Shown: positions 2,232 through 34,698 of the stretch, piece by piece | Layout of the letters: the number at the start of each line of letters is the position of its first letter | Position numbering within the stretch: position 1 is the stretch's first letter | Origin: a virus | Lineage: Duplodnaviria; Caudoviricetes | Reading direction: 5' to 3' (one strand) | DNA: 57,124 nt | Virus record (IMG/VR): IMGVR_UViG_3300042261_000671 | Coordinates: 1 to 57,124 of that record | Position numbers and translations under genes: made by a program | Notes under the pieces: generated by a model | Databases searched by the model: none | Seen by the model: the letters and a program-made list of their open reading frames with translations, nothing else | What the model was told of the DNA's origin: nothing

Positions 2232-2830
2232 AAAACTACGGACAATTTATAAACGAATTCAATATGCCTTTTTTTAGAAGAGGACCAAAAATTAAGAAAT
2301 TATTAGGATTCTTTGGTAAATCTATTAATTTGAAAAATGTAAGGGGAGAAGAATTTGAAGAATGTGAAATAAAAATAGATCCTATATATGAATTTGGTAA
2401 AAAAACATTCAAGGTAGAACTTAATTTTTCTGAAGATCTTATGGCAGCTCACAGAGAAGTTGACCCATATGGTGAAGAAGAATGGTATGATGAAACAGAT
2501 AGAATTCCAAGAGCAAAAATAACATATAATTCACCATCTACATCTCTCAGAAATGAACAGAATGATAAACCAGAGATGATTCATATTGAATCAGATGATA
2601 ACATTAGAGTCACTAATCTTGAAACAGATAGAGACGGTATAAAGTTAATAACTGATATGTTTAATAGAATCTATAATTATGAAGGAGAAAAAAAGGTTTG
2701 GGCAGAGGACAATGTAAGACAACTTCTATTAAATGGATTAAATTGGAAAAAACGTGAAAGAAATCTATATATGAAAGTTATGGTAGACGAAGAAGATTAT
2801 GTTCCAATGGATTATCAACCAGGATATTAA
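2228..2830 (+). CDS. Hypothetical protein with capsid-targeting-like N-terminus and DPYGEEEW
   Basis: Probable start ATG 2228 (MKNYGQFINE), overlapping the upstream stop; motif at 2462-2485. Confidence 0.75.
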   Translation: MKNYGQFINEFNMPFFRRGPKIKKLLGFFGKSINLKNVRGEEFEECEIKIDPIYEFGKKTFKVELNFSEDLMAAHREVDPYGEEEWYDETDRIPRAKITYNSPSTSLRNEQNDKPEMIHIESDDNIRVTNLETDRDGIKLITDMFNRIYNYEGEKKVWAEDNVRQLLLNGLNWKKRERNLYMKVMVDEEDYVPMDYQPGY

Positions 2831-2882: not shown

Positions 2883-5207
2883 TTAATTTTTACTCTCGGA
2901 TTTGGTAATGTTTTTGGTTAACCAAGCTGCTAAAAGCTCACCTACACCACTCCCACCATTACTTGTGATTAAAGTATCTGGTACGATTTTAACATTTCCT
3001 TGTCCAATCTTTTCGGCAATCTGGACCTGGATAACACCCTCATTACCGATAGCTTGCTTCTGTTTCTCATAGGCTTCAGCAGTTGCGGTTCCTTTTGCAA
3101 AGATTGCTGTACCTTCAGCTTTACCCACAGCTTCGATACCTGCTGCAATACCTTCCTGTTTCAACTTTGTTGACTGTCCTTCACCTTCAGCAAGGAGAAC
3201 CGCTTTCTTCTTTTGATTGTCAGCGACCTTAACATCGATTTCGGACTGAACGAGATCCTTCTGCTTTTCAGCTTCTGCAGTGGTCTTTTCCATTGCGATA
3301 CGTGACTGCTGAGCTTTCTGCTGTTCGAAGAACATTGCTTGCTTCTGCTGTGCAATAATTCTTTCAGTCTGTGTTTTCATAAGATCCTCAGGAAGTTGGA
3401 TCTGACAGATAAGAACGCTCACCAATTCAACGTGATACTTTTCGAGTTCTGCTCTTGCTCTGTTTTCAGCCTTCTGCTGCTCTTCATGTCTGTTTTGCAT
3501 GAAGTTCATTGCTGATGTAGCGGAAGCCTGATTTCTGAAGCTGGAGTCAATCATTGGGTGAATAACGTGATCCACCAAATTCTTGATAGAACCAATCTTA
3601 GCTACCATATAAGGTGACTGATCTGGACGAACTCTAATAACAACCTTAACTGAAACTCGAATTTCGAAACCATCATGTGATACGACCTTAAGAGGGTCGA
3701 ATGGTGTATTCTGACTTTCATCCCAGTCAATAGTCTGGTTAGTAGTATCTACAATGTAGGGGATATAAGCTCTACGGTTAAGGTAATAAATACCAGGACC
3801 AGCAACGTCCCTTTGAATTCCTCTAAATCCCTTTGGTACTACGTATCTTTCAATACCAGTATCGAGACGTTTCTCAACACCACCGGCTAAAGTTTCATCT
3901 TCGGTTGGTGTAGCTGTAGGACTAGTGCCGACACCACCACCTTCTTTATTGGCAACTTGTTCAGTCATTTCTTTAACCTGTGGTGGTTCTTCACCAACGT
4001 TAGAAACAACAACAGCGACCTGACCTCTTTCAACGACTGCTACATCATCCAATTCGACACTAAACATCAAAGGATTGATATAATATGTACCTGGACGAAG
4101 AACGTCGAACTGAGGACCACGCTGACCACCATTAGCCAAGAAAGCTGTGACATCTTGGAAATTATTATGTCCTGTTACAGATTTAGCAACGTATTCTGTT
4201 TCTGGCAGAGGCTGACCGTCGCGGGCGACAACGATACCAACTTTCTTATCAGGAATAATAACCGTTTCTTTAACCTCAACCTTAAATAAGGCAGTATTGA
4301 TACGATATTTACCTGGAAGAAGAATACTAGTCTGAGGACCTTTTTCACCACCTTTATCTAAGAAGAACCTTCCATTCTGGAAATTATCATGCCCTTCAAT
4401 AGCTTTGGCTAAAAGCCTTCCTTCTGCAATAGGTTTACCATCCTGAGAAGTTACAATACCAATCTGCCCCTTTTCAATAACGGTAATCTTAACAGGAGTT
4501 ACCTTGAACAAGGCAGTATTGATACGATAAGTTCCCGGAGGAAGTGTTTGAATCTGAGGACCTTTTTCACCACCATTAGCTAAGAAAGCTGCACCATCTT
4601 GGAATAAATCGCATTCAACGACTTTACCAAAGATTCTACCCGCTGGTACTGGGCTACCGTCAATAGCTTCAACGACTCCAACTTCGTCCTCTTTAATGAC
4701 AGTCTGTTTAACTGTCTTTACAGTGAAAAGCAACGGATTAATACGGTAACCTCCAGTTCTTGTTTCCTTATCTGTGGCATAACCACCAGGAGGAATAATA
4801 CCAAGTTGGATACCTTTTTCTCCACCGTTCTTCAAAAATGCTTCACCATCCTGGAATAAATTACATTCCACTGGGCGAGCAAAGATTTTACCCGATGGAA
4901 CAGGATTACCGTCGTTAGACTGCACTAATCCAATTTCATCAGGACCGATGATCACGAACGGGAAAGCTCTCCTCTTATAAATAAAAGGAGGAATGAAGGT
5001 CAAACCAGGTCCTTTTACTCTAGCCTGAACCCCAATCTCGTTCGTCATAGCAAAAACTCTGTCTTTTGGCATCTGTTTACCAATCCATCGTCTTTCTAAT
5101 GTTTTAATTTCCCTACCACCAACATTCAGTATAGAACTGAAAACGATGATCAAAAGAAAAATCGCAAGGAGACTATATCCTGCGATTGTCAAAATTAAAC
5201 TTACCAT
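2883..5207 (-). CDS. SPFH/Band 7 (flotillin-like) membrane protein with four internal repeats
   Basis: N-terminal TM helix; four repeats of G.V...DG.P....F.....F...GG..G.Q....PG; SPFH core (SHDGFEIRVSV..IDSSFRNQA); C-terminal Ala/Glu-rich coiled coil. Confidence 0.9.
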   Translation of the reverse strand: MVSLILTIAGYSLLAIFLLIIVFSSILNVGGREIKTLERRWIGKQMPKDRVFAMTNEIGVQARVKGPGLTFIPPFIYKRRAFPFVIIGPDEIGLVQSNDGNPVPSGKIFARPVECNLFQDGEAFLKNGGEKGIQLGIIPPGGYATDKETRTGGYRINPLLFTVKTVKQTVIKEDEVGVVEAIDGSPVPAGRIFGKVVECDLFQDGAAFLANGGEKGPQIQTLPPGTYRINTALFKVTPVKITVIEKGQIGIVTSQDGKPIAEGRLLAKAIEGHDNFQNGRFFLDKGGEKGPQTSILLPGKYRINTALFKVEVKETVIIPDKKVGIVVARDGQPLPETEYVAKSVTGHNNFQDVTAFLANGGQRGPQFDVLRPGTYYINPLMFSVELDDVAVVERGQVAVVVSNVGEEPPQVKEMTEQVANKEGGGVGTSPTATPTEDETLAGGVEKRLDTGIERYVVPKGFRGIQRDVAGPGIYYLNRRAYIPYIVDTTNQTIDWDESQNTPFDPLKVVSHDGFEIRVSVKVVIRVRPDQSPYMVAKIGSIKNLVDHVIHPMIDSSFRNQASATSAMNFMQNRHEEQQKAENRARAELEKYHVELVSVLICQIQLPEDLMKTQTERIIAQQKQAMFFEQQKAQQSRIAMEKTTAEAEKQKDLVQSEIDVKVADNQKKKAVLLAEGEGQSTKLKQEGIAAGIEAVGKAEGTAIFAKGTATAEAYEKQKQAIGNEGVIQVQIAEKIGQGNVKIVPDTLITSNGGSGVGELLAAWLTKNITKSESKN

Positions 5208-5362
5208 TTGTTTGTTGTATTAGATATTGCCTACTCTTTTTACCATTTTCGACGTCCTGGTTTTTTCGATATTTTACTACTTCTTATAGTCATGAAATCG
5301 AAAAAAGTTTGAACTTTTTTCGGAAATTTTAAACTCAAAAATTATATTTAATATATAAATTT

Positions 5363-8230: not shown

Positions 8231-9448
8231 ATGAATAAATCTGAGATAGTTAAAAGTTTTTTTGATAACGCAACTAGATTATTAAATCTATACAAAGAGA
8301 TAGAAAATTTTCTAAAAATAGAAAATGACATAGAGAAAATTGTTTCATTTTTGGAAGAAAAGAAACAAGAAACAGATATTATCGAAGATGAAATAAATAA
8401 ATTAAGATCAGAATCAGAAAAATTTTGTAAAGACATTCCACAAAACGAAAAATTAAATTCCAAATACTTAGATAAAATTCATTCTAAATTTCAGAAGATA
8501 ATAAAAGGATTTACATATTGGTATAAACATTATACAGCATATCAAAAAATAGCCATTAAATATAAATGTTGGAAAGTTAGATTCCTCCTACATGATATAG
8601 AGAAACCATTCCTTAATATATTCATGAGCTACGAAAATGTACATAGAATACACAGACACATATCACCACACCACGTAGAATCCTTTAGAAAGAAAAAAGA
8701 TTATCTTGGGATGTTAATAGATTGGGAATGTGCTAGATATACTAAACCAAAAATGCCATTGAATGCTAAAGAAACATGTGATAAATTTTATCCAGAAGTA
8801 AAAGATAAAATATATCCATTATTAAAGAAGCATGGATTGATGGAATTTGTAAAAACGTATGAATCATTTAATTCTCCTATTACAATAGCTGTCACTGGAT
8901 CTATTGCTTCTGGTAAATCTACTGTGTGTAGTTCAATAGAAAAAGATTATGGATATTTAGTATATTATAGTGATATTGAGGCTAAAAATCTTGCAAATAA
9001 TAACAACGAATTAAAGAATGATATAATAAAAGAATTTGGAGAAGAATCATATTTGGGTGGAGTTTATAACACCAAATACATTGCCAGTATAGTATTCAAT
9101 GATAAAAATGAATTAGAGAAATTAAATAGAATATTTAGAATACATCTTAGAAATGATTGGAAAAATTTTATAAATCAACACAAAAATGAAAAATTCATAT
9201 TTTATGAATCTGCTCTTATATTTGAGCATAATCTTGTTAAAGAATATGATTATGTAATTTGTGTTTATGCTAGTTTAGATACTATAAGAAAAAGACTAAA
9301 ATCTAGAAATAACTACAACGATGTAGAGATCGAAAATAGATTAAGTAAACTATCTAATCAAGAGTATAAAATCAAGAATTCAGATTTTTCTATAAATACA
9401 GATTTTGATTGGAAAGATCAATTAGATGAGATAATGCGCAAATTATAA
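8231..9448 (+). CDS. coaE: Fusion of coiled coil, HD-type domain and dephospho-CoA kinase
   Basis: LLHDIEK..H..HHVE..DWECA (HD-like); from about 8840 IAVTGSIASGKST, YSD..AK, ESALIFE, R...R are CoaE motifs. Confidence 0.85.
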   Translation: MNKSEIVKSFFDNATRLLNLYKEIENFLKIENDIEKIVSFLEEKKQETDIIEDEINKLRSESEKFCKDIPQNEKLNSKYLDKIHSKFQKIIKGFTYWYKHYTAYQKIAIKYKCWKVRFLLHDIEKPFLNIFMSYENVHRIHRHISPHHVESFRKKKDYLGMLIDWECARYTKPKMPLNAKETCDKFYPEVKDKIYPLLKKHGLMEFVKTYESFNSPITIAVTGSIASGKSTVCSSIEKDYGYLVYYSDIEAKNLANNNNELKNDIIKEFGEESYLGGVYNTKYIASIVFNDKNELEKLNRIFRIHLRNDWKNFINQHKNEKFIFYESALIFEHNLVKEYDYVICVYASLDTIRKRLKSRNNYNDVEIENRLSKLSNQEYKIKNSDFSINTDFDWKDQLDEIMRKL

Positions 9449-13352: not shown

Positions 13353-13385
13353 AAAAAAACCAGACCTTTTGAGTCTGGTTTTTTT
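13353..13385. terminator. Bidirectional intrinsic terminator
   Basis: A-run, CCAGAC-cttttga-GTCTGG, T-run. Confidence 0.9.
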
Positions 13386-14445
13386 GTTCCCCTACCTTCA
13401 CACCAGTCTTCCTCCTGGTCGACTTTCGTCTTATCGGGCGCCAAATAGGGCTGTCAGAGGTTCACTTTGTAACTTGACATTCGTAACCGTTACCAGTTAC
13501 AAGATAAGGGATTGTGTACTCACATATGTTGGTGGGACTACTTGCCTCTTAGCGACTTCGCTCGGACTTTCTGAAGGTCCTTCTGCTAATCAACCAATCA
13601 TAGTTGATGAAAAAAAGAAAAAAATAATTTGATGAGACTCCTGACTACTCATAATCCTCGGATTTCATCTACCATTATTCACCCACGTTCCACAGATGGT
13701 GATCGGCCACTGTGTTTTACCTTCGTCAGACACCTTACGGTGCAGACACATCAGTGAACGGGAGGTCCTTTCCTCCAACCAGATACAGCCATCAGCATAT
13801 ATACATGCGATTTGTCTGGTTCTTACGTCACTCGGGGTTGACCAACCCCGGCTATTTCAGGTTTATGGTACGAAATCTGTAACACCTGCTCCACAGGCTT
13901 TTCAGTCTGGGCTACATTGCGTTAGGGGCTGGCGACCCCTTCATTCCGCCACAAATTATTTTTTCAATCTTTCAAAGAACTTTATGAGCACTTATGGATA
14001 GTGAAGCCCTTATTCACAGTGAGGGTCGGGTGAAGGTCTAGTATATAGAGACACCTTATACCACACTGACATCAATTTTCAGATCAATATTCTACGAACT
14101 CCCTGAAATCGTCTATCCATATATCAAAGAACTTAATTTGATTCTGTGAGATTCTGTCAAATTTCTTCGGATACCTACTGGTGGGTTGAAAAGTTATCTC
14201 GCCTTTCAGTATTCAGTCAGTCTGTGGACTGATAAAATTTTGTTTATCTCTAATTTGATGATACAAAGATACGTCAAATTCCCGACATAAAAAAATTTTC
14301 TGATGAAAAAAATACGATGTTAATAGTAACAGCTGATATATGTTTCATTATCAATTTAAATGCGAAGGAACCGCAGCCTCACTTTCCTCACATACTATCA
14401 CGGGCGACTGCACCTGACCCTTTATTATAACACCGAATATCTTAC
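13386..14445 (-). ncRNA. Cluster of putative structured non-coding RNAs (family unassigned)
   Basis: Raised GC, no credible ORF, many hairpins including GNRA loops on the minus strand, long-range closing stems, three boxA-like motifs, promoter at 14264-14271 and terminator at 13353-13385. Confidence 0.7.
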
Positions 14446-14460
14446 AGATTCAAAGAACTT
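13971..14460 (-). promoter_or_regulatory. Three boxA-like antitermination motifs (AAGTTCTTTGA) at about 13971-13982, 14124-14134 and 14449-14460
   Basis: Identical tcaaagaactt on the + strand three times, each just upstream (minus sense) of a folded element; resembles rrn boxA GTTCTTTG. Confidence 0.6.
14264..14271 (-). promoter_or_regulatory. Bacteroidota -7 promoter element driving the ncRNA locus
   Basis: Reverse complement is TATCTTTG(TA). Confidence 0.6.
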
Positions 14461-14540
14461 TCTAAATCGTCAATAAATAACTGATTTATGTATATTATAT
14501 TCCCAAAAAATCGCGTTGTTTTAAAAATCGTCGAACTTTT

Positions 14541-15554: not shown

Positions 15555-17819
15555 TTACCACTTCCTCTCAAAAGGATTACGAAGAGATCCAGCCTGTTGA
15601 TTAAACGGAGATACATAAGGTATCGGTTTTAACGTTGGTTTTATTCTTGGATAGAAAGTTTTATTTTTCGTAACAATACCATAATTAATATCAGATTCAG
15701 CTCCTCTCGTATTCAAAAAATTCATCATTACCTGTTTATCCCTATCAGACATAACATAATCCGAATAAGAATCTACTAGATTTTTAAAATCATAATGATC
15801 ATATATAGCAGATAGATTTATTAATGTCATCACACAGTCGTCATTGCCAGTTTCACTTCTAAAAGTTATTTCGCCACTTGAGGTTTCGTGTTTAGAGAAA
15901 GATTTTAACTCTATTATGTTATTTTCATTATGAAGTATCATATTATCTTTTTTTACAGCATCTTGAAAATCTTTCAATAATAATTTCTTATTATGCCCTA
16001 TAAGTAATCCTATCTTTGGTTTAGCGTCTGTTTCTCTATGCTTAAATCTTGAGAATACCGCATCCATAAAATCATTATTATCATTAAAAACATGTCTTAT
16101 ATTGTTCAATAAATCGTTTCCAAGATTCTTATTCATTTCCAAAACTATCTTAACTTTCTCTGGATCAAATATCTCAAAAACAATTAAATATAATACGTGT
16201 GCTATTTCGTTAATAGAATATACATTATTTCTAAATAATCCAATTTGCTCTAACTTAAAAAGATCATACTTATTATTCAGAAACATCTTCTTTCTTTCTA
16301 TTAGTTTTTCATCCTTCATTAATAGTCTAAACATGTTAATAACAGTATAGTCTAATCCTAAACCTTCTGCTAAGTCTATTCCTATTGTTATATAATAATC
16401 CTTTGCTTTTTCTAGTTCAAATAAATCAGGTCTATCTTTTATGAATTTTAAGTTATCGTACGGTAAATTGAATTTTTTCTCAAAACATTCTAAGTGTGGA
16501 GTTTCAAATTCCACTTGTTCATTCATGAAACTTTCAAACATAACACTATCGAATAACAATTTATCGTCTGTTATAAATTGTATTTCAAATTCCTGTTTGA
16601 ACATACTCTCACCACCAATAAGACCGGTTTGTTCTTCTTGCCAGTTTGTAACTCTACATATCTCGGGTAACGGTATTATTTCAGATATTCTTATTTGTCT
16701 TATAGTATCTATGTGACAATTTTCACGTGGAGTTTTTTCATCATTTTCGAAGAACTTTATGAAATACCATAGATCTCCATCTATAACTTTCTTATAAACT
16801 TCATACCCCATTGATATTAATTGTTCTATTACTTCATCTACTGTAACGTTATATTGACGCATTTTATAATCCAGGAAGAATAGTTTAGTATCTCTTCTTC
16901 CTTTTACTTGATGCCAATAAATACGCATGGCTTCATATTTGTTCCATCTTGGATCACTTTTTTCTTTTTCTGCATTTGTAAGCAATTCCCAGAATAAATT
17001 ATATCCATCTGGAGTTGATGTAATAATGATCTTAGAATTTTCGATAGATGATACGGTAGGAACAACAGATCCATAATATGCTCTAATGATAGAGTCTGGG
17101 ATTTTTGCAAATTCGTCTAGATACAACAAGTCAATGGCAAAACCGATAGCTGGTTCTTTAGATCTCGATTGACTCTGTACTCTACTGTTATTTTCAAAAG
17201 ATATTTGCTTCTCATTCCAGTTTGTTACTCCAGTTTTCAAAAAGAATGGGAGCAATTTGTAAATATCTTTTATTTTTCTGATAATTTCCTTTACTGTTTC
17301 TGATTTATTAGCAACTATCATAACACCTTTATCATCATTGAACAATACTAAATGTAATATAACAATAGAAGCAGATACGGTATTTAGGTTTAATATATCA
17401 TTAGCATAATAACTATGTTCGTTTGATAAAATAGACAAATCAAACATAGATACTTTATTTGTTGTCTTATTGATTGATTTAACTTTAGACGGTCCTTTCT
17501 TTGTAAGTACAATATCATTCGTTGTTAAATCTTTGGCGAATTTTATATTATGTCCTTCAGTAAAAATTGCGTGAACGTCAGCACAATTCATTTTTACGTC
17601 ATTCTCTAATTCTAGTTCTTGTATCTTATATGGTTGTGTTAAATTTATTTCATCTATTGGTACAAAACCATAATCGGTTTCAACAGATAAATTATCTAAA
17701 GAGAGTATATTAATAACTTTTTTTAGAGGATCTTCTTCATCAAATTTATTATTTTTATATTCTATTTTCTCAATAAATTCAATGAGTTTGTAAATAACAT
17801 TTCTTAAAAATTTACGCAT
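15555..17819 (-). CDS. terL: Terminase large subunit C-terminal part, fused to the C-half of a split intein (aa 1-146)
   Basis: Extein starts TVSA (end of Walker A); LLYLDEFA Walker B, IIITSTPDG, FKQEFE, GIDLAEG, NDDCVM; preceded by HINT blocks B/F/G. Confidence 0.93.
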   Translation of the reverse strand: MRKFLRNVIYKLIEFIEKIEYKNNKFDEEDPLKKVINILSLDNLSVETDYGFVPIDEINLTQPYKIQELELENDVKMNCADVHAIFTEGHNIKFAKDLTTNDIVLTKKGPSKVKSINKTTNKVSMFDLSILSNEHSYYANDILNLNTVSASIVILHLVLFNDDKGVMIVANKSETVKEIIRKIKDIYKLLPFFLKTGVTNWNEKQISFENNSRVQSQSRSKEPAIGFAIDLLYLDEFAKIPDSIIRAYYGSVVPTVSSIENSKIIITSTPDGYNLFWELLTNAEKEKSDPRWNKYEAMRIYWHQVKGRRDTKLFFLDYKMRQYNVTVDEVIEQLISMGYEVYKKVIDGDLWYFIKFFENDEKTPRENCHIDTIRQIRISEIIPLPEICRVTNWQEEQTGLIGGESMFKQEFEIQFITDDKLLFDSVMFESFMNEQVEFETPHLECFEKKFNLPYDNLKFIKDRPDLFELEKAKDYYITIGIDLAEGLGLDYTVINMFRLLMKDEKLIERKKMFLNNKYDLFKLEQIGLFRNNVYSINEIAHVLYLIVFEIFDPEKVKIVLEMNKNLGNDLLNNIRHVFNDNNDFMDAVFSRFKHRETDAKPKIGLLIGHNKKLLLKDFQDAVKKDNMILHNENNIIELKSFSKHETSSGEITFRSETGNDDCVMTLINLSAIYDHYDFKNLVDSYSDYVMSDRDKQVMMNFLNTRGAESDINYGIVTKNKTFYPRIKPTLKPIPYVSPFNQQAGSLRNPFERKW
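17382..17819 (-). mobile_element. Split intein C-fragment (146 aa, no endonuclease)
   Basis: VETDYGFVPI, CADVH (block B), MFDLSI..HSYYANDILNLN|T (blocks F/G). Confidence 0.88.
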
Positions 17820-28311: not shown

Positions 28312-31300
28312 ATGAAAGGCAATCAATTTACAGACGAATTAAGTCGTGAAATTTACGAACAAACTTATAAATACGGAAATGAAACTTTAGAAACTACACA
28401 AAAAAGAGTTGCGGAAGATATAGCTTCAGTAGAGACAAATAAAGAAGAATGGAAAAATAAATTCTTAGAAATACTTGAAGATTTTAAATTTGTTCCAGGT
28501 GGTAGAATTATTTCAAACGCAGGAACAAATATCAGAGGAACAACATATATAAACTGTTTTGTTGATGGTTTCGTTGGAAAACACCAAGATTCAGTTTCCG
28601 GAATCCTAGAAGCACTTAAAAGACAAGCTTTTATTTTAAAATCAGAAGGAGGTTACGGTTTTTGTTGTGATGTTATGAGACCTAGAGGAGGTTATATTGA
28701 AGGGATAGCCAACGATACTCCAGGTGCTGTTAAATGGTTAGATAATTGGAATACTCAATCAGATGTTATTACAGCTGGTAGTGGTAGAAAATCAGGTAAC
28801 AAAAAGGCAAAACAAAAAATACGTAAAGGTGCTCAAATGGTAACTATGTCATGTTGGCATCCTGATATAGAAGAATTTATTACTGCCAAACAAACACCAG
28901 GAAAATTAGACAAATTTAACATGAGCGTTCTTATTACAGACGCTTTTATGGACGCTGTTCATAATAATAAAAAATGGGATCTGATATTTCCTGATTTTGA
29001 TCATGCCAAAGAAACCTACAATGATACATGGGATGGAAATCTTGGTAAATGGATAATGGATGGTAATCCCATAAAAGTATATAAGACTTTTAAAGATGCC
29101 AACGAATTATGGGATCTTATCATGAAATCTACATACAACAGAAACGAACCAGGGGTTCTTTTTGTTGATACAATGAATAGATTAAATAATCTAGCTTATT
29201 GCGAATATATTAGTGCTACTAACCCTTCACTCAGAAAAGGAACTAAAGTTTTAACAAAAGATGGAATAATAGATATAGACGAATTAGAAAATAAAAAATT
29301 CCAGGTTAAAACATTAGAAGGTAACTGGGCTGATGCTGAATGCTTTTTATCAGGAAAAGATAAAAAACTTTACAAGGTAACTTTATCTAATAGGAAAGAG
29401 ATTTTTGCTACAAAGGAACATAAGTGGCCTGTTGAATTGAAAGGTGGTGGTTGGGGTAAAGTTACTACTGATAAATTATCAAAAGGTAATATCTTACCAT
29501 TTCCAAAAAATGAGAATATCGGGCTTGATGTAGATCAAAAAAGATTGACAAGAGATCATGGATTCATGCTAGGTTGGTTATATGGTGATGGATGGATTCA
29601 CGATACAGATAGAACAGTATATGGATTTTTATTTTCCAAAGAAGAAAAATATTTATCAGATGGAATATTAAAATCAATAAATGGTTTAAAAACAGAAAAA
29701 TCTAATTTAAGAGATTGTGGAGATGGAACTTTTGATTTCTGCACTCAATCTAATGAGATACAAGCTACTTTTAAGGGATTATTTGGAGTTAAATCTAAAA
29801 ACGAATTACCATCAAGTATTTGGAAAAGTAATGACGAATTTATCAAAGGATTTATAGACGGAATATTTAGCGCAGATGGGTGTATATCTGATAAAACAAA
29901 TAGGATTATTTTAACAAACAAAAATGAAAATTTTCTATTATCAATATCATCATTATTGTCATTTTATGGTATAAAATCTTATGTTTTAAAGGGCAAACCC
30001 AGAAAATCAAATTTTCCAAATGGTAAAGATTATGAAAAAAATTATGTAAGATATGATCTAATATTGGATTACAATAACGCTGATTGTTTTGCTAAAATAT
30101 TTAATTTATCACATTTGGAAAAACAACGCAAGATAGATAACTTGATAAATAGAAATAAAATAAGAAAGTCAAATTTATCAGAGAAAATACTGATTTTATC
30201 AGTAGAAGAAACTGATATACACGAAGATGTTTGGGACATTCATGTATATGACGAAACACACACTTTCTATATAAGTGATTGCGTAACTGGAAATTGCGGC
30301 GAACAGATTCTTCCCATAGGTGGAGTTTGTTTACTTGGCAATCTTAATTTAACACAATTTATCAAAGAAGATTTATCTGGATGGGATTATGATAAATTAA
30401 AAGAAGTTATTCCTATAGCTATTAGATTTATGGATAATGTTAATGATTTAACTTATGTCCCATTACAAGACCAAAAAGATAATCTCATCAATAAAAGAAG
30501 AATAGGTTTAGGTATTCTTGGATATGGTAGCGCACTTCTTATAATGAAGAAAAGATATGGTGGTGAAGAGGCTTTGAAAATTACTGAAGATCTTATGAAC
30601 TTTATAGCTAACACAGCATACCAATCTTCTGCTTTACTAGCTAAAGAAAAAGGTGCATTTTTACTTTATGACGGTGAAAAATATTTGAAAAGCGAATATA
30701 TCAAAAATTTATCGGAAGAAACAAAGAACATGATTAGAGTTTACGGAATTAGGAACTCTCATCTGCTCAGTATTCAACCAACTGGTAATAGTTCAATTCT
30801 AGCGAATGTAGCTTCGGGTGGTCTTGAACCTGTATTCTTATTTGAGTATATAAGAACAGTTATCCAACCTTATGCTCCAGATGGTATGGATGTTCCAAAG
30901 AACGTAGATTGGGCTAATTTATCATTTTCTTCCAATAATGATTGGAAGTGGGTTAAAGAAGGCGATGAAAACATGTTGAAAATAGAATACAAAGGTGATG
31001 TATATAAATTCGATAGAGGACGTGGTATATTAAAAGAATCTGTGGTCAAAGACTATGGTGTTCGTTTTCTTGAACAAAGAGGAGAATGGGATCCAAACGC
31101 TGAATGGGCAGCAAATATTAACAATCTTAGAATAGAAGAACATATAGGTACAATGAAAGTTATTTCAAAGTATATAGATTCTTCCATGTCAAAGACTATT
31201 AATTTACCACAAGATTATAAATTTGAAGATTTCAAACATGTTTATACGGAATTATTTAAAAGTGGAACAATTAAAGGTGGAACAACCTATAGGGCTGGCA

Positions 31301-31911
31301 CAATGGCTACTGTTATAAAAAAGAAAGAAGAGGAAACTCAAGTAGTATTGGAAAATAATGCACCGAAAAGACCAGTGAAATTAAATTGTGATGTCATTAG
31401 ATTTACTAATAAGGGAGAAAAATGGATTGGTTTTGTCGGATTAGATTGGAGAGACGAAACTAAACCATATGAAATATTTACTGGATCTGCCGAATCTTTT
31501 GTTGTACCTGGATGGGTAGAAAAAGGAATTATTAAAAAAGAAAAGATAAAAAATAAAGAGGGTGTTATAGTTTCAAGATATGACTTCATCTACGCTGATA
31601 AAGAAGGTTATGAAGTTATAATGACTGGTTTAAATAGAGCTTTTCAACGAGAATATTGGAACATCGGTAAAATGACAAGTGCTTTATTAAGACATAGAAT
31701 ACATCTTCCGTCAGTTATTGGAATTATTGACTCATTAAATCTTGATGGTGATGTAATGGGAACTTGGAAGAAAGGTATAACTAGAATGTTAAAAAGATAT
31801 GTAAAAGTAGAAGATGGGTCAGCTACTTGTGATAATTGTGGTTCAACGAATTTACTTTTCAAAGAAAATTGCATATCTTGTCTCGATTGCAACTGGCAAA
31901 AATGTGAATAA
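28312..31911 (+). CDS. nrdJ: Class II (B12-dependent) ribonucleotide reductase with intein
   Basis: FVPGGRI, NCFV, TNP|intein|CGEQ, CLLG, RRIGLG, IQPTG, TTYR; Bacteroidetes-type C-terminal domain and Zn ribbon. Confidence 0.93.
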   Translation: MKGNQFTDELSREIYEQTYKYGNETLETTQKRVAEDIASVETNKEEWKNKFLEILEDFKFVPGGRIISNAGTNIRGTTYINCFVDGFVGKHQDSVSGILEALKRQAFILKSEGGYGFCCDVMRPRGGYIEGIANDTPGAVKWLDNWNTQSDVITAGSGRKSGNKKAKQKIRKGAQMVTMSCWHPDIEEFITAKQTPGKLDKFNMSVLITDAFMDAVHNNKKWDLIFPDFDHAKETYNDTWDGNLGKWIMDGNPIKVYKTFKDANELWDLIMKSTYNRNEPGVLFVDTMNRLNNLAYCEYISATNPSLRKGTKVLTKDGIIDIDELENKKFQVKTLEGNWADAECFLSGKDKKLYKVTLSNRKEIFATKEHKWPVELKGGGWGKVTTDKLSKGNILPFPKNENIGLDVDQKRLTRDHGFMLGWLYGDGWIHDTDRTVYGFLFSKEEKYLSDGILKSINGLKTEKSNLRDCGDGTFDFCTQSNEIQATFKGLFGVKSKNELPSSIWKSNDEFIKGFIDGIFSADGCISDKTNRIILTNKNENFLLSISSLLSFYGIKSYVLKGKPRKSNFPNGKDYEKNYVRYDLILDYNNADCFAKIFNLSHLEKQRKIDNLINRNKIRKSNLSEKILILSVEETDIHEDVWDIHVYDETHTFYISDCVTGNCGEQILPIGGVCLLGNLNLTQFIKEDLSGWDYDKLKEVIPIAIRFMDNVNDLTYVPLQDQKDNLINKRRIGLGILGYGSALLIMKKRYGGEEALKITEDLMNFIANTAYQSSALLAKEKGAFLLYDGEKYLKSEYIKNLSEETKNMIRVYGIRNSHLLSIQPTGNSSILANVASGGLEPVFLFEYIRTVIQPYAPDGMDVPKNVDWANLSFSSNNDWKWVKEGDENMLKIEYKGDVYKFDRGRGILKESVVKDYGVRFLEQRGEWDPNAEWAANINNLRIEEHIGTMKVISKYIDSSMSKTINLPQDYKFEDFKHVYTELFKSGTIKGGTTYRAGTMATVIKKKEEETQVVLENNAPKRPVKLNCDVIRFTNKGEKWIGFVGLDWRDETKPYEIFTGSAESFVVPGWVEKGIIKKEKIKNKEGVIVSRYDFIYADKEGYEVIMTGLNRAFQREYWNIGKMTSALLRHRIHLPSVIGIIDSLNLDGDVMGTWKKGITRMLKRYVKVEDGSATCDNCGSTNLLFKENCISCLDCNWQKCE
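29227..30294 (+). mobile_element. Intein with LAGLIDADG homing endonuclease (356 aa)
   Basis: NP|SLRKGTKV..ATKEHKW..LGWLYGDG..FIDGIFSADG..VWDI..HTF..VTGN|CGE. Confidence 0.92.
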
Positions 31912-31956: not shown

Positions 31957-34698
31957 TTAGTTAATAACAATTATTTTATTAGTTATTGTTTTATCTTTAT
32001 TGCTCATTATAACATAATATATTCCAGGAATATAATTTAATCCAATTGTCGTTTTCCCTGTTTTGATATTATCAACATAAACAACCTTAGATAAAGAATT
32101 TACAATTTTCAAATTAAAATTATCTTCACATTCAATATTCAATATATCCTTTGCTGGATTTGGATAAATTTTAATATTTTGTAAGTTGTGATTATCAATA
32201 CCAAAAATCAAAGCAAATTTAGCTATCAAATGTAAACTCTGATTCATTACAGTTATTTTCGATGAATCTGAAAATACTACATTATTATCATCTACCCAAT
32301 TTTTAAACATCCAACCATCATAAGGAAATGCTTCCAAAGTAACAGATACTCCATTTTGATATGTGTTACATCCACCTGTTACATAACCTCCTTCTGTTGG
32401 TGATGCTTCTGCTAGTATAGTATAACTTATACCAATTTGGTAAAAATGAGCCATGATGTTCGTATTTTCTGTTATTTCAAAAGTATAAACGCTATCTTTT
32501 GAAACTAATTTACAATCTTTTGTCCACCCATAGAATTCCCAACCAGGATTAGGTTTTACCTTTATTGTTACGATGGAACCAGGAATATAATATCCACTAC
32601 CAATAATGGTTCCGCCACCAGAAGGTAAACCTCCCACCATAACATAAAAAGCTGAATCAAAATTGGCAACTAAATTTCTATTAGAATTAGCAATAAATTC
32701 GTATGTACTTGTATCTGAAACTAAAATTCCATTTTCAGTCCAACTAACAAATACAAAAGCACTATCTGGAATTGCTGATACTGTCACAGTATCTCCTATG
32801 AAATAAATCCCACTACCGATTGTTAATCCTCCTATTATTGGATATGATGATGTTGAGATTGTTACAGGTTGTGGTTTAGACTGAAAATAAGCAATAAAAT
32901 GACTATTCCTAGTTACTATAAAAGTATAACTATTAGAATCAGAAACAATATTACCGTTCTCTGTCCAATGAATGAAATTGTAATTAGTATCAGCCACAGC
33001 AACAATCGTAGCGGTATCACCAATATTATATAATCCACCACCGTATGTAATTCCACCACCAATTGGACTAACTGATGTTTGAATTAATGCGACATTGTTA
33101 TTAATTAATATAGTATTAAGAGGATTTCCGTTTGTTGTATCTGAATTATACAATTCATGTGTGTGAAATCCATTATATTCACATACCATTACTCTATAAT
33201 TAGTATCTTGAACAAGATTAGTTACAGTGACACTATCTGAATTTCCATTATAAACACAATACCATCCAGAATTACCAATCTGACTTCCATTTCCAAAAAC
33301 TGAATCAGCAGAATAAGTTGTCCTATTTACAGGAAGAGCAGACCCGGAGCTATCCTTCTTAACGAAGACAGCTCTATTATCACCATTTCCATTTGTCCAT
33401 TTTATTTTAACACTATTTACTTGTTTATCAGAAAAAACTATATTAGATGCTTGAACTGTCGGAGTTGATATAATATATGGAGAGAATTCAGCCATCGGAT
33501 TTCTTCCATTTGGCCAAGTAGTTCCAGATCCAGTAAAACTATACAATACTGTATTGGTTGTAGTTGAAGGATCCCATTTAAAAATAACTCCGGCGTTGTT
33601 AGACCCACCGTGAGTAGTAGTAGATAGAAAAATTCCACCATTTAATACGAAAGAATATGCACTAATTGGTTCACTACCGTTTGTTACATTAAAATCAATT
33701 TTCTTAGTAAAAACATTTCCATTAAGATTGAATTCAAAAATAGTACCATGATTAAATGAACCACCGGCGTATGTCATTCCGTATAATTTACCATCTTTTA
33801 GAAATAAAGAGCCGTCTGAATTAGCACCATCAATATTACTAAAATCGTGCATTTTATTAAAAATATTAGTATTTGGATTCCATTCGAAAATAACACCGAT
33901 ATTATTATTACCTCCAGCACTTGTCATTCCATAAAAAACATCATTATTCATCACAAGTTGTCCACCTGGCTGATTTCCTGTAGCAGATGATAAATCTACC
34001 TTTTTAAGATATGTATTTGTATTAGGATTCCACTCAAAAATAACACCAACATTATTTGAACCACCATACATAGTAAGTCCATAAAATTTATCATTATATA
34101 ATACTAATGTTCCTTGAGAATTTGCCCCATCAATTCCATTAAAATCTATTTTCTTATCGAAGTTATTAGTGACTGGGTCCCATTCGAAAATTACCCCTTT
34201 ATCATATGCACCACCAGCATATGTCATGGAATAAAACTTATTATTATATAATACAAGAGAACCGTAAGGAGTACTACCCATAGTACTTCCATCTAAATCA
34301 ATTTTTTTTACATATTGATTGTTTTTTGGGTCCCATTCGAAAATTACACCTTTATTGTAATTTCCACCCATCTGGGTCATTCCATAGAATTTACCATTAA
34401 ATAGTGTAAGAGCACCATATATTCTTTTTCCTGGAGTATTAGGACCGCCCAAATCTATTTTCTTCGTGTATGTGTTAGAAGTTGGATCCCATTCAAAAAT
34501 GACACCTGTGTTATAATTTCCGCCTTGCATGGCTGAAGAATAAAATAAAGTGTCGGATTCTTGAATTCCAGTGTATCCAGCAATGTTAGCAAAAGTAGAA
34601 TTGCTGAGAGCACTTTCCCATTTATAATCTAATGAGAAAGCATTAATAGACAAAAAGCAACATAAAGTTGCAAACATCAGATAAATCAGTTTTTTCAT
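31957..34698 (-). CDS. Secreted surface protein: signal peptide, beta-propeller-like G.IFEW repeats, FN3-like domain, InlB-B-like repeats, T9SS type A C-terminal domain
   Basis: MKKLIYL signal; seven YG.T..GG....GVIFEW-type repeats; four GG...GGG.Y..G..F..WT repeats; IKIYPNPAKD..GIYYV..KIIV. Confidence 0.85.
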   Translation of the reverse strand: MKKLIYLMFATLCCFLSINAFSLDYKWESALSNSTFANIAGYTGIQESDTLFYSSAMQGGNYNTGVIFEWDPTSNTYTKKIDLGGPNTPGKRIYGALTLFNGKFYGMTQMGGNYNKGVIFEWDPKNNQYVKKIDLDGSTMGSTPYGSLVLYNNKFYSMTYAGGAYDKGVIFEWDPVTNNFDKKIDFNGIDGANSQGTLVLYNDKFYGLTMYGGSNNVGVIFEWNPNTNTYLKKVDLSSATGNQPGGQLVMNNDVFYGMTSAGGNNNIGVIFEWNPNTNIFNKMHDFSNIDGANSDGSLFLKDGKLYGMTYAGGSFNHGTIFEFNLNGNVFTKKIDFNVTNGSEPISAYSFVLNGGIFLSTTTHGGSNNAGVIFKWDPSTTTNTVLYSFTGSGTTWPNGRNPMAEFSPYIISTPTVQASNIVFSDKQVNSVKIKWTNGNGDNRAVFVKKDSSGSALPVNRTTYSADSVFGNGSQIGNSGWYCVYNGNSDSVTVTNLVQDTNYRVMVCEYNGFHTHELYNSDTTNGNPLNTILINNNVALIQTSVSPIGGGITYGGGLYNIGDTATIVAVADTNYNFIHWTENGNIVSDSNSYTFIVTRNSHFIAYFQSKPQPVTISTSSYPIIGGLTIGSGIYFIGDTVTVSAIPDSAFVFVSWTENGILVSDTSTYEFIANSNRNLVANFDSAFYVMVGGLPSGGGTIIGSGYYIPGSIVTIKVKPNPGWEFYGWTKDCKLVSKDSVYTFEITENTNIMAHFYQIGISYTILAEASPTEGGYVTGGCNTYQNGVSVTLEAFPYDGWMFKNWVDDNNVVFSDSSKITVMNQSLHLIAKFALIFGIDNHNLQNIKIYPNPAKDILNIECEDNFNLKIVNSLSKVVYVDNIKTGKTTIGLNYIPGIYYVIMSNKDKTITNKIIVIN

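Follow-up and report, generated by a model that had tools for sequence, protein, structure and literature searches.

Background

In ribosomal RNA (rRNA) operons the boxA element binds NusB-S10 and makes RNA polymerase Rho-resistant; boxA is also known from the Nus antitermination complex (rrnTAC), from lambda nut and from sites upstream of CRISPR arrays. Among structured phage RNAs, manA was first described as a riboswitch candidate in marine metagenomes and T4-like cyanophages, where it lies in the 5' untranslated region (UTR) of protein genes (Weinberg et al. 2010, PMC2864571). According to a preprint that is not peer reviewed (10.64898/2026.07.01.735769), cryo-electron microscopy shows manA RNAs forming pentamer-based decamers and a 60-subunit icosahedral-like cage. 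These oligomers are held by the kissing loops L5-L7', L8-L9' and L3-L8' and by a GNRA-receptor contact (10.64898/2026.07.01.735769). ROOL and GOLLD, large ornate RNAs of phages and prophages found "often near tRNA islands", assemble into cages made of RNA only, which are held by kissing loops and A-minor contacts (Kretsch et al. 2025, PMC12286853). In the T4-like cyanophage S-CREM1, wcaG, manA and abiF lie within about 0.8 kb (PMC9964418). Here we describe a locus predicted to be a non-coding RNA (ncRNA) operon, in which an ornate RNA, element C, and several smaller RNAs are accompanied by boxA sites. It lies on a 57,124-nt stretch of phage DNA (IMG/VR record IMGVR_UViG_3300042261_000671, positions 1 to 57,124), analysed as a whole and hereafter called the window.

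The locus occupies positions 13353-14460 of the window on the minus strand and contains one conserved promoter block, three exact copies of the word AGTTCTTTGA, five folded RNA elements (A, X, B, C and D) and an intrinsic terminator. Its layout is that of a miniature rRNA operon: promoter, leader, boxA, stem-enclosed RNA, boxA, stem-enclosed RNA, terminator. As in rRNA operons of Bacteroidota, whose leaders and spacers carry the same motif, the second and third copies stand just upstream of a stem enclosing a structured RNA, and the transcript would be long and untranslated. Unlike an rRNA operon, the phage has three to four boxA copies in about 1.1 kb, serving small orphan RNAs and not rRNA, and no boxB or boxC was identified. 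The S-CREM1 cluster is similar in bringing together several structured RNAs, including one of manA type, in one short non-coding stretch of a T4-like phage, but no Rfam match was obtained for elements X, A, B and D; the available portion of the S-CREM1 account (PMC9964418) mentions no boxA, and S-CREM1 was not searched for boxA here. That the locus is a transcribed, terminator-ended ncRNA operon is predicted from its sequence with high confidence. The explanation that best combines the evidence, to which we give a probability of roughly 0.55, is a boxA-equipped ncRNA operon whose transcript would be antiterminated and whose element C would be a self-assembling relative of manA.

Composition of the locus

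An initial annotation, made by reading the window's sequence, had described about 1.1 kb of raised GC without a credible open reading frame (ORF), and both points are borne out. The GC content is 0.405-0.495 over 13400-14099 and 0.325-0.38 over 14000-14499, against 0.215-0.31 in the 3 kb on each side, and no ORF longer than 101 aa was found in the locus with translation table 11 or with TAG read as Q. The features that this annotation had named were all recovered, at most a few bases from where it had placed them. It had also seen no tRNA, transfer-messenger RNA (tmRNA) or rRNA; consistently, ARAGORN found no tRNA or tmRNA in the window, and at the locus neither Rfam nor, apart from the boxA stretch, comparison with rRNA loci gave a similarity of these kinds. 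In the locus no Rfam family reached its gathering score and no full-length match was obtained, and at E-values up to 10 the search returned nothing but terminator look-alikes.

Candidates read by eye, namely RNase P (GAGGAAAG-like words), a group I intron (R/S-like words), signal recognition particle RNA and 5S rRNA, were dropped since no model matched them. An origin of element C from an rRNA fragment was also rejected: nhmmer had no hit with C in 37 rRNA loci, and the sole blastn match was the boxA stretch.

Homologues and structure of element C

Element C and the parts on which its structure rests are as follows.

13618..13964, minus strand: element C, a 347-nt ornate RNA, enlarged and manA-like
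13952-13964 with 13619-13631, minus strand: closing stem of C, AAAAAATAATTTG/CAAATTATTTTTT, read from the sequence
13900-03, minus strand: GAAA tetraloop, a GNRA loop
13858-62 with 13681-85, minus strand: long-range helix
13837-46, minus strand: self-complementary hairpin tip
13815-21 with 13777-83, minus strand: core helix of 7 bp
13791-95 with 13641-45, minus strand: loop pairing CUGAU/GUCAG

Homologues of C were sought by pattern scans over IMG/VR, metagenomes and genomes, followed by nhmmer confirmation, and were collected in alignment A9. This gave 25 distinct, essentially full-length sequences of 303-351 nt from huge phages; the long contigs bearing C measure 79 to 735 kb, and one of them (L101, 553,716 bp) is rated 100% complete. 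Chance matches made up 3 of the 28 metagenome loci (L028, L030 and L049, all coding) and 6 of the 9 loci of the first viral scan. A later IMG/VR scan contributed 9 true homologues among 26 new loci, and a subsequent one none among 25. With the C pattern, the genome collection returned a single contig, from a Bacteroidales metagenome-assembled genome (MAG; locus L053). The clade-1 relatives of the window are L002 (accession LR756501), L012, L024/L019/L052, L009/L010/L011/L032, L025, L031, L046 and L053.

A structure of 54 pairs was drawn for C, in which 97.3% of 1338 alignment cells hold standard pairs and 36 of the 54 pairs have changed on both sides. None of 500 shuffles reached any of the five measures used, and structures slid by 1-3 columns gave 36-45% pairing and 7-11 compensatory pairs. 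The locus has one feature that might be expected of decayed coding DNA, a single 210-aa plus-strand frame that opens in it under table 4, and functionless spacer that is GC-rich by chance would be the other trivial reading. The compensatory pairs of C refute both for practical purposes; moreover, close relatives differ in the locus by indels of 1-2 nt, the two longest frames have no match in Pfam, and the adjoining genes are intact under table 11, which leaves a negligible likelihood for either.

The individual parts of the fold are well preserved. The core helix AACCAGA/UCUGGUU is invariant in the first 23 sequences, and the later ones covary at 4 of its 7 pairs with 100% pairing. CUGAU (13791-95) pairs over 4-5 bp with the loop GUCAG of the 3' hairpin (13641-45); both sides have changed in L009, and U-G has become C-G or U-A in clade 3, L009 and L053. 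This pairing may form within one molecule or between molecules. Another hairpin loop has the form N-GGYY-A, with a 4-nt core that is self-complementary in 25/25 sequences (variants GGCC, GGCU and GGUC), and the GAAA loop occurs in 24 of the 25, L009 having GGGA, likewise a GNRA loop. The single-stranded stretches CAUAA, GACGUAAGAA, CAAAUCG, UGAAUAAUG and GGUAGUCAGGA are invariant. The claim of several folded RNAs (A, B, C and D) in the initial annotation agrees with the covariation seen for all four, as well as for the added element X (see below), and the closing stems it had proposed for B and C are both readable in the sequence.

The boxA sites

Three exact copies of the boxA word lie in the locus.

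14450..14459, minus strand: boxA-1, AGTTCTTTGA, about 80 nt past the stop of the upstream methylase gene, in a conserved leader
14124..14133, minus strand: boxA-2, exact, 3 nt ahead of the stem that closes B and at the same place in L002, L012 and L024
13972-13981, minus strand: boxA-3, within a region (13956..13984, with downstream AAGATTGAAA) that matches the host 16S-23S spacer boxA region

These are the only exact copies of AGTTCTTTGA in the 57 kb, and all are on the minus strand; shuffles expect 0.32 copies, and 1 of 100 shuffles reached three. Two sites are downstream of the promoter block with its box TATCTTTG and one follows a stop codon, all three being on the transcribed strand. The leader around boxA-1, TTATT.TGACGATTTAG.AAAG.TCTTTG, is kept in L002 and L012 and has a degenerate form in L024 (...TCTTAG). 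The third copy, 7 nt upstream of the closing stem of C, is kept at the C position in L002, L024, L010 and L012, and L053 has TATCTTTGAAAGG there.

The word was compared with the rRNA operons of the probable host phylum. Of 121 genomes from the phylum of the Bacteroidales MAG, 65 had a 16S match, and the best 30 loci from 30 genomes were used, counting AGTTCTTTGA with at most one mismatch. Among these 30 Bacteroidota rRNA loci it was found 86-221 nt upstream of the 16S gene in 27 (missed in L063, L083 and L078, the last with just 130 nt of upstream sequence) and in the 16S-23S spacer in 29 (the exception being L073). The background in the window was 13 matches with at most one mismatch per 114 kb of strand, or about 0.06 per 500 nt per strand. 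A first look had covered 13 genomes of the MAG's order, 3 of them with a 16S locus: one carries AAAGTTCTTTGA about 100 nt upstream of 16S and again in the spacer before 23S, and the other two carry variants. Two host spacers read AAAGTTCTTTGAAAGATTGAAAGAG; compared with window positions 13956-13984, they match over 29 nt at 93% (L072) and over 34 nt at 88% (L063). From the rRNA-locus counts and the spacer matches we conclude that the phage has a host-type rRNA boxA with part of its spacer context, so that the sites which the initial annotation had called boxA-like carry the rRNA boxA word of Bacteroidota.

On this basis the three motifs probably function as boxA antitermination sites. They could instead act as -7 promoter boxes of low strength, or as signals for an endonuclease or for processing, giving each module its own 5' end, with no relation to Nus factors. 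The closing stem of B begins 3 nt after boxA-2 and that of C 7 nt after boxA-3, which would suit such a role, relatives shuffle modules along with their motif, and the TATCTTTGAAAGG of L053 is a perfect TAnnTTTG word before C. However, Bacteroidota sigma-A promoters follow the consensus TTTG at -33 and TAnnTTTG at -7, and AGTTCTTTGA has neither the TA of this -7 box nor a TTTG at about -33. The same motif stands at both boxA positions of the Bacteroidota rRNA operons, the likeness to host spacers goes beyond the word itself, and the first copy follows a stop codon, where protection from Rho is needed and a promoter is not. We therefore regard the promoter or processing reading as unlikely. Far less probable still is that the copies are a decoy which soaks up NusB-S10 and starves host rRNA synthesis, the RNAs being mere stabilising scaffolds: three to four copies per transcript, identical in sequence to the host rRNA boxA, would fit a decoy, but the attached RNAs have strong covariation and conserved loops of their own, and element C occurs in tRNA arrays without this arrangement.

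Two further occurrences of such words were seen. The contig G005:C291 has three copies of AGTTCTTTGA in a stretch that resembles ordinary coding DNA. In the arrays of clades 2 and 3, boxA-like words of the form TGTTCTTTA/G lie on the tRNA strand (L014 3087-3095, plus; L013 8082, plus; L021 11218, plus), that of L014 being 5 nt past element C.

Probable relation of element C to manA

The Rfam model of manA, RF01745, has a gathering score of 55.2 bits, and at gathering score no family was found on C in the window or in the related loci. The relatives were therefore searched as small loci with permissive thresholds. In a set of 6 loci RF01745 then hit element C, on the RNA strand, in 5 (16.2-24.5 bits), and in a set of 16 it did so in 12 (16.4-32.1 bits). 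Scores in relatives ranged overall from 13.1 to 32.1 bits, below the cut-off; the matched clade-1 members are L031, L046 and L025. Searched alone, L042 gave 32.1 bits (E = 9.7e-7 in 351 nt) and L041 23.2 bits (E = 4.2e-4). As controls, none of 14 control genomes matched, and the manA of Prochlorococcus phage P-SSM2 scored 181.6 bits.

The likeness extends to the parts that define manA. In the alignments of L041 and L042 to the model, element C shares with manA the 5' box GUG.CUGAAUAA with a hairpin and UAAGG after it, a hairpin capped by a GNRA loop, a central helix led by GACGUAA and a 3' hairpin GGGUA...AAUCCC whose loop is able to pair with the central domain, and both RNAs are carried by T4-like phages. 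In L041 and L042 the manA 5' box GUGaCUGAAUAA, its hairpin and UAAgG are aligned with high posterior probability, and the 3' hairpin GGGUAGUCAGGAAUCCC (GGGUA..A..AAUCCC) is aligned to the manA model; in the window the 5' box has diverged (GUGGCGGAAUGA, hairpin, UAACG). Two GUG..UGAAUAA boxes occur in 13 of the 25 C sequences and L042 has a second, partial RF01745 match over the 3' third of C; for these reasons we infer that C may consist of a manA-like unit plus a partial second unit.

Element C also departs from manA in several respects. With 303-351 nt against about 190 it is some 1.7 times longer, and it has a self-complementary loop in place of the GUGGUG-loop hairpin. By our own reading, manA of P-SSM2 has two pairs of complementary loops, GUGGUG with UUACCAG and CUGUA with UACAG, and for the second of these pairs C has CUGAU/GUCAG. 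It is found in tRNA arrays or in a boxA operon of huge phages with non-cyanobacterial hosts, and it has no downstream ORF: D and the terminator follow, or tRNAs flank it, so that it is not the 5' UTR of a protein gene. Below the model's cut-off in score and different in size and context, and yet having the defining sequence boxes, C is filed as an enlarged manA variant; that the two are evolutionarily related is likely. The initial annotation had proposed one or more novel structured RNAs. This holds in so far as no full-length or above-threshold match exists and X, A, B and D match no family, and it is weakened for C, a distant enlarged relative of manA.

If C were used as manA was first thought to be, it and its neighbours would be cis-regulatory leaders or riboswitches. 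In P-SSM2 the genuine manA indeed has a promoter of its own and precedes purL by 15 nt, and manA was rated a riboswitch candidate on its description (Weinberg et al. 2010, PMC2864571). In the window, however, C is followed by D, the terminator and a convergent gene, with no ORF between C and the terminator, and in the other clades tRNA genes flank C. Such settings, tRNA islands and an RNA operon closed by a terminator, are hard to reconcile with cis regulation by C; we hold this role very improbable, and C is unlikely to be a riboswitch.

Element C in tRNA arrays

Outside clade 1, element C lies within tRNA arrays, on the tRNA strand, in 15 loci. Often tRNA genes are its immediate neighbours, for example tRNA-Thr and tRNA-Met in L101 and L095, and tRNA-Gly and tRNA-Met in L014. 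In 13 of the 15 loci (L014, L101, L095, L096, L104, L099, L108, L113, L013, L016, L017, L018 and L021), tRNA-Met(CAT) is one of the two nearest tRNAs to C. This adjacency is a lead only, since a number of these loci are near-identical to one another and tRNA-Met genes occur several times in the arrays. One GOLLD has been reported downstream of a Met-tRNA (PMC12286853). In clade 3 a TTGACA-17-TATAAT promoter stands just upstream of C and in clade 1 one of the TAnnTTTG type; given this difference, C is shared by phages whose hosts differ in promoter type.

The comparison with ROOL and GOLLD drawn in the initial annotation is apt, because relatives of C occupy phage tRNA islands. Element C is about half the size of ROOL, and the Rfam models of ROOL and GOLLD gave no match in the window or in 30 related loci.

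The same context would be expected of a catalytic RNA or one directed at tRNA or translation, such as a tRNA-processing or tRNA-binding ribozyme or ribonucleoprotein, that forms no cage and shares with manA a fold only. Besides the 15 arrays and the frequent closeness of tRNA-Met, the long invariant single-stranded stretches, which persist across phages with different promoter types, speak for such an RNA. On the other side, no RNase P, tmRNA or group I model matched C even at E-values up to 10, the genome G001 has C with a single tRNA, and in clade 1 C is away from tRNAs: LR756501 has 66 tRNAs, none of them close to the RNA locus. This makes a cage-free catalytic or tRNA-directed RNA doubtful.

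Other RNA features were noted in these arrays. Group I introns above gathering score lie in C-bearing clade-3 arrays at L041 664-846 (minus), L047 427-601 (minus) and, in the array of L042, at 747-938, 1686-1859 and 2547-2729 (plus). In the tRNA array of L018, some 0.9 kb past C, the stretch 3627-3743 (plus) gave a sub-threshold match to YrlA, a Y RNA-like family, with 38.9 bits where the cut-off is 69. In the clade-2 loci L016, L018 and L051, a conserved stretch AATAATTGGT...ACCAATAGGA.GCCTTTTTAAGG is located 100-250 nt upstream of C, after a TTGACA promoter, and may be another small RNA.

The locus in related phages

Where the sequence suffices, clade-1 loci keep one order: the terminase gene TerL (found in 8 loci), the RNA locus on the same strand, the terminator and a convergent gene (found in 6). 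Within the locus the modules vary. Element A precedes the promoter in the window and follows B in L002 and L012; in L024 a further GC-rich module, equipped with a boxA, stands between B and C (about 1085-1265, minus); in L012 element C is lost, a boxA and a stub of the closing stem remaining (about 8440-8590, minus); and L010 has a short D. A boxA-like word precedes B and C where these are present, as well as the extra modules of L024 and L012. The window and L002 have 3 such words each, as does L024, which has a degenerate one in addition; L012 has 4 and L010 has 2. The "boxA plus RNA" units behave as cassettes.

Predicted promoter and terminator

Two features of the locus would direct its transcription.

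14264..14300, minus strand: promoter block, with the -7 box TATCTTTG at 14264-14271
13353..13385, both strands: intrinsic terminator A7-stem-T7, able to serve either strand, where convergent transcription meets

We take TATCTTTG to be a -7 box of the Bacteroidota TAnnTTTG type. The block TTTTTTTAT.TCG..AA..TG.CGTATCTTTGTAT is nearly invariant in the window, L002, L012, L024 and L010, some 45 nt being kept in all four of these relatives. TANNTTTG occurs 90 times against 91 expected, so that TATCTTTG is not significant as a word, and the -33 region is merely T-rich. The promoter that had been annotated here is a candidate whose block is conserved in four relatives and whose -7 word is no commoner than chance. 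A second TATCTTTG promoter lies 17 nt upstream of a boxA in L002 and L012.

The annotated terminator was recovered by a scan of 2.2 kb, which gave 4 terminator-like sites against 1.0 expected, one of them a 14-bp stem with a T-run at 13385-13353. In L002 compensatory changes have altered its stem, and L024, L010 and L012 retain the hairpin.

Elements X, A, B and D

Four smaller RNAs accompany element C.

14321..14420, minus strand: element A, a three-helix RNA of about 100 nt
14169..14250, minus strand: element X, a highly conserved leader RNA of about 80 nt, between the promoter and boxA-2
13994..14120, minus strand: element B, a 127-nt multi-branch RNA
13386..13580, minus strand: element D, with a GUAA-capped hairpin, a GAAA-capped hairpin and the invariant loop GAGGAAGA

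Element X was absent from the list of the initial annotation. Nothing else in the upstream half of the locus is as conserved in sequence: in 8 distinct homologues a core of about 65 nt is almost invariant and the flanks have diverged. Homologues of A were found in L025 (94% identity), L002 and L012. Element B, closed by the stem ATGGATAG/CTATCCAT (14113-14120 with 13994-14001), has homologues in L031, L025, L024 and L046 and partial ones in L002 and L012, and D has homologues in L002, L024, L046, L031 and L012. Compensatory changes were counted at 2 of 15 predicted pairs in X (8 sequences), 4 of 25 in A (4 sequences), 8 of 42 in B (5 sequences) and 8 of 31 in D (6 sequences), a modest covariation because the sequences are few. 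All four elements are confined to clade 1, and the Rfam scan, which covered the window and part of the relatives, assigned none of them to a family.

Genome setting and host

The window is a piece of a virus record with a CheckV completeness of 8%. Its nearest public relatives, LR756501 and LR756503, both of 735,411 bp, are 80.5% identical across 71% of the RNA locus. The proteins of the window are T4-like (gp32, baseplate proteins, RecA/UvsX-like protein, DnaB, clamp-loader ATPase and a ribonucleotide reductase with an intein). A 913-aa protein at 31957-34698 (minus) combines InlB B-repeat-like domains with a Por_Secre_tail sorting signal of the type IX secretion system (T9SS), a domain that to our knowledge is restricted to Bacteroidota, and points to a Bacteroidota host. 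Judging from these proteins, the source is a huge T4-like phage infecting Bacteroidota.

No RNA data set was among the sequencing runs found to contain the sequence. The DNA sets with at least 0.93 of the sequence words are metagenomes from lakes or fresh water; being flagged as possible sources, they are not independent evidence of habitat. Read set X6, labelled metatranscriptomic and judged "probably DNA", gave contigs of relatives (93-465 nt, 80-95% alike) covering parts of C, X, A and D, one of which skips 13668-13772. These contigs show the presence of relatives, not transcription. Nothing aligned to the locus in the read sets X7 (RNA) and X8.

Elsewhere in the window, the ribonucleotide reductase large subunit at 28312-31911 (plus) is split by an intein with a LAGLIDADG domain, and TerL (15555-17819, minus) gives only a faint hint of an intein. 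A DUF805b RNA (RF02914) at 5228-5262 (minus) scores 37.8 bits, above its gathering score of 35.6, and lies 21 nt upstream of a 774-aa ORF with an SPFH/Band7 domain at 2883-5207 (minus).

Proposed mechanism

Transcription would enter the locus by read-through from the terminase and methylase genes and from the conserved Bacteroidota-type promoter (-7 box at 14264-71). The transcript would pass the leader RNA X, a boxA, B, a boxA, C and D and would end at the intrinsic terminator (13353-85). In the nascent RNA the boxA sites would bind host NusB-S10 and turn the polymerase into a Rho-resistant, fast and folding-assisting form, as they do for rRNA, and this antitermination would let an untranslated RNA of 1.1 kb be finished. 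The closing stems just downstream of boxA-2 and boxA-3 would delimit the RNAs, which RNase III may release. Antitermination and processing of the transcript, already put forward in the initial annotation, are what we infer from this arrangement of sites and stems.

The released C would act as a stable trans-acting RNA and would most likely self-assemble, as is reported for manA, into a closed homo-oligomer through kissing loops and a GNRA contact. The occurrence of C in tRNA islands, its GNRA and self-complementary loops and its loop-loop pairing fit the cage picture of manA, ROOL and GOLLD. Taken by itself, the assembly of C into a closed oligomer is a tentative proposal, at about even odds.

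Several observations weigh against this combined explanation. The window's own C has no RF01745 match even at E-values up to 10, nor was one found in L113, L019, L053, L011 and L032 (4 of the 16 loci and 1 of the 6). All matches are far below the Rfam cut-off, and it is the family alignment that carries the link to manA. At 13 bp, the A-U closing stem of C is short for a classic RNase III site, and by-eye reading gives no obvious closing stem for C in clade 3. The self-complementary loop, with three variants only, could pair elsewhere. The motif before C in L053 is TATCTTTGA, which doubles as a -7 promoter word, and given this word the motif may have a promoter or processing role. The tRNA link is not universal, since G001, rated 100% complete, has C with one tRNA only. 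Finally, self-assembly of C is argued purely by analogy with manA as described in the preprint (10.64898/2026.07.01.735769).

As to what the RNAs do, our best-supported guess is a stable trans-acting RNA assembly tied to the tRNA and translation apparatus. In an extended form of this idea, which we consider speculative and improbable, the "mini rRNA operon" would mass-produce RNAs for an RNA-only or RNA-dominated nanocompartment, with C forming the shell by its kissing loop and X, B, D and A serving as partners or cargo; the cage family, like ROOL and GOLLD, would then act on the tRNA and translation-initiation apparatus, a link hinted at by the position of C beside tRNA-Met genes.

Significance

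We found no published account of this operon, of any phage ncRNA operon furnished with boxA, whether or not in multiple copies of the host rRNA motif, or of an enlarged manA variant. With X, A, B and D the locus also adds four structured orphan RNAs, together with a natural set of variants for structural and functional tests. If element C is indeed a relative of manA, the range of that family would grow from marine cyanophages to huge phages of freshwater, gut and rumen, including genomes of 553 and 735 kb, and manA would join the genomic niche of ROOL and GOLLD. If the combined explanation is true, phages would borrow the antitermination and folding machine of host rRNA synthesis for stable RNAs of their own, beyond the case of lambda N.

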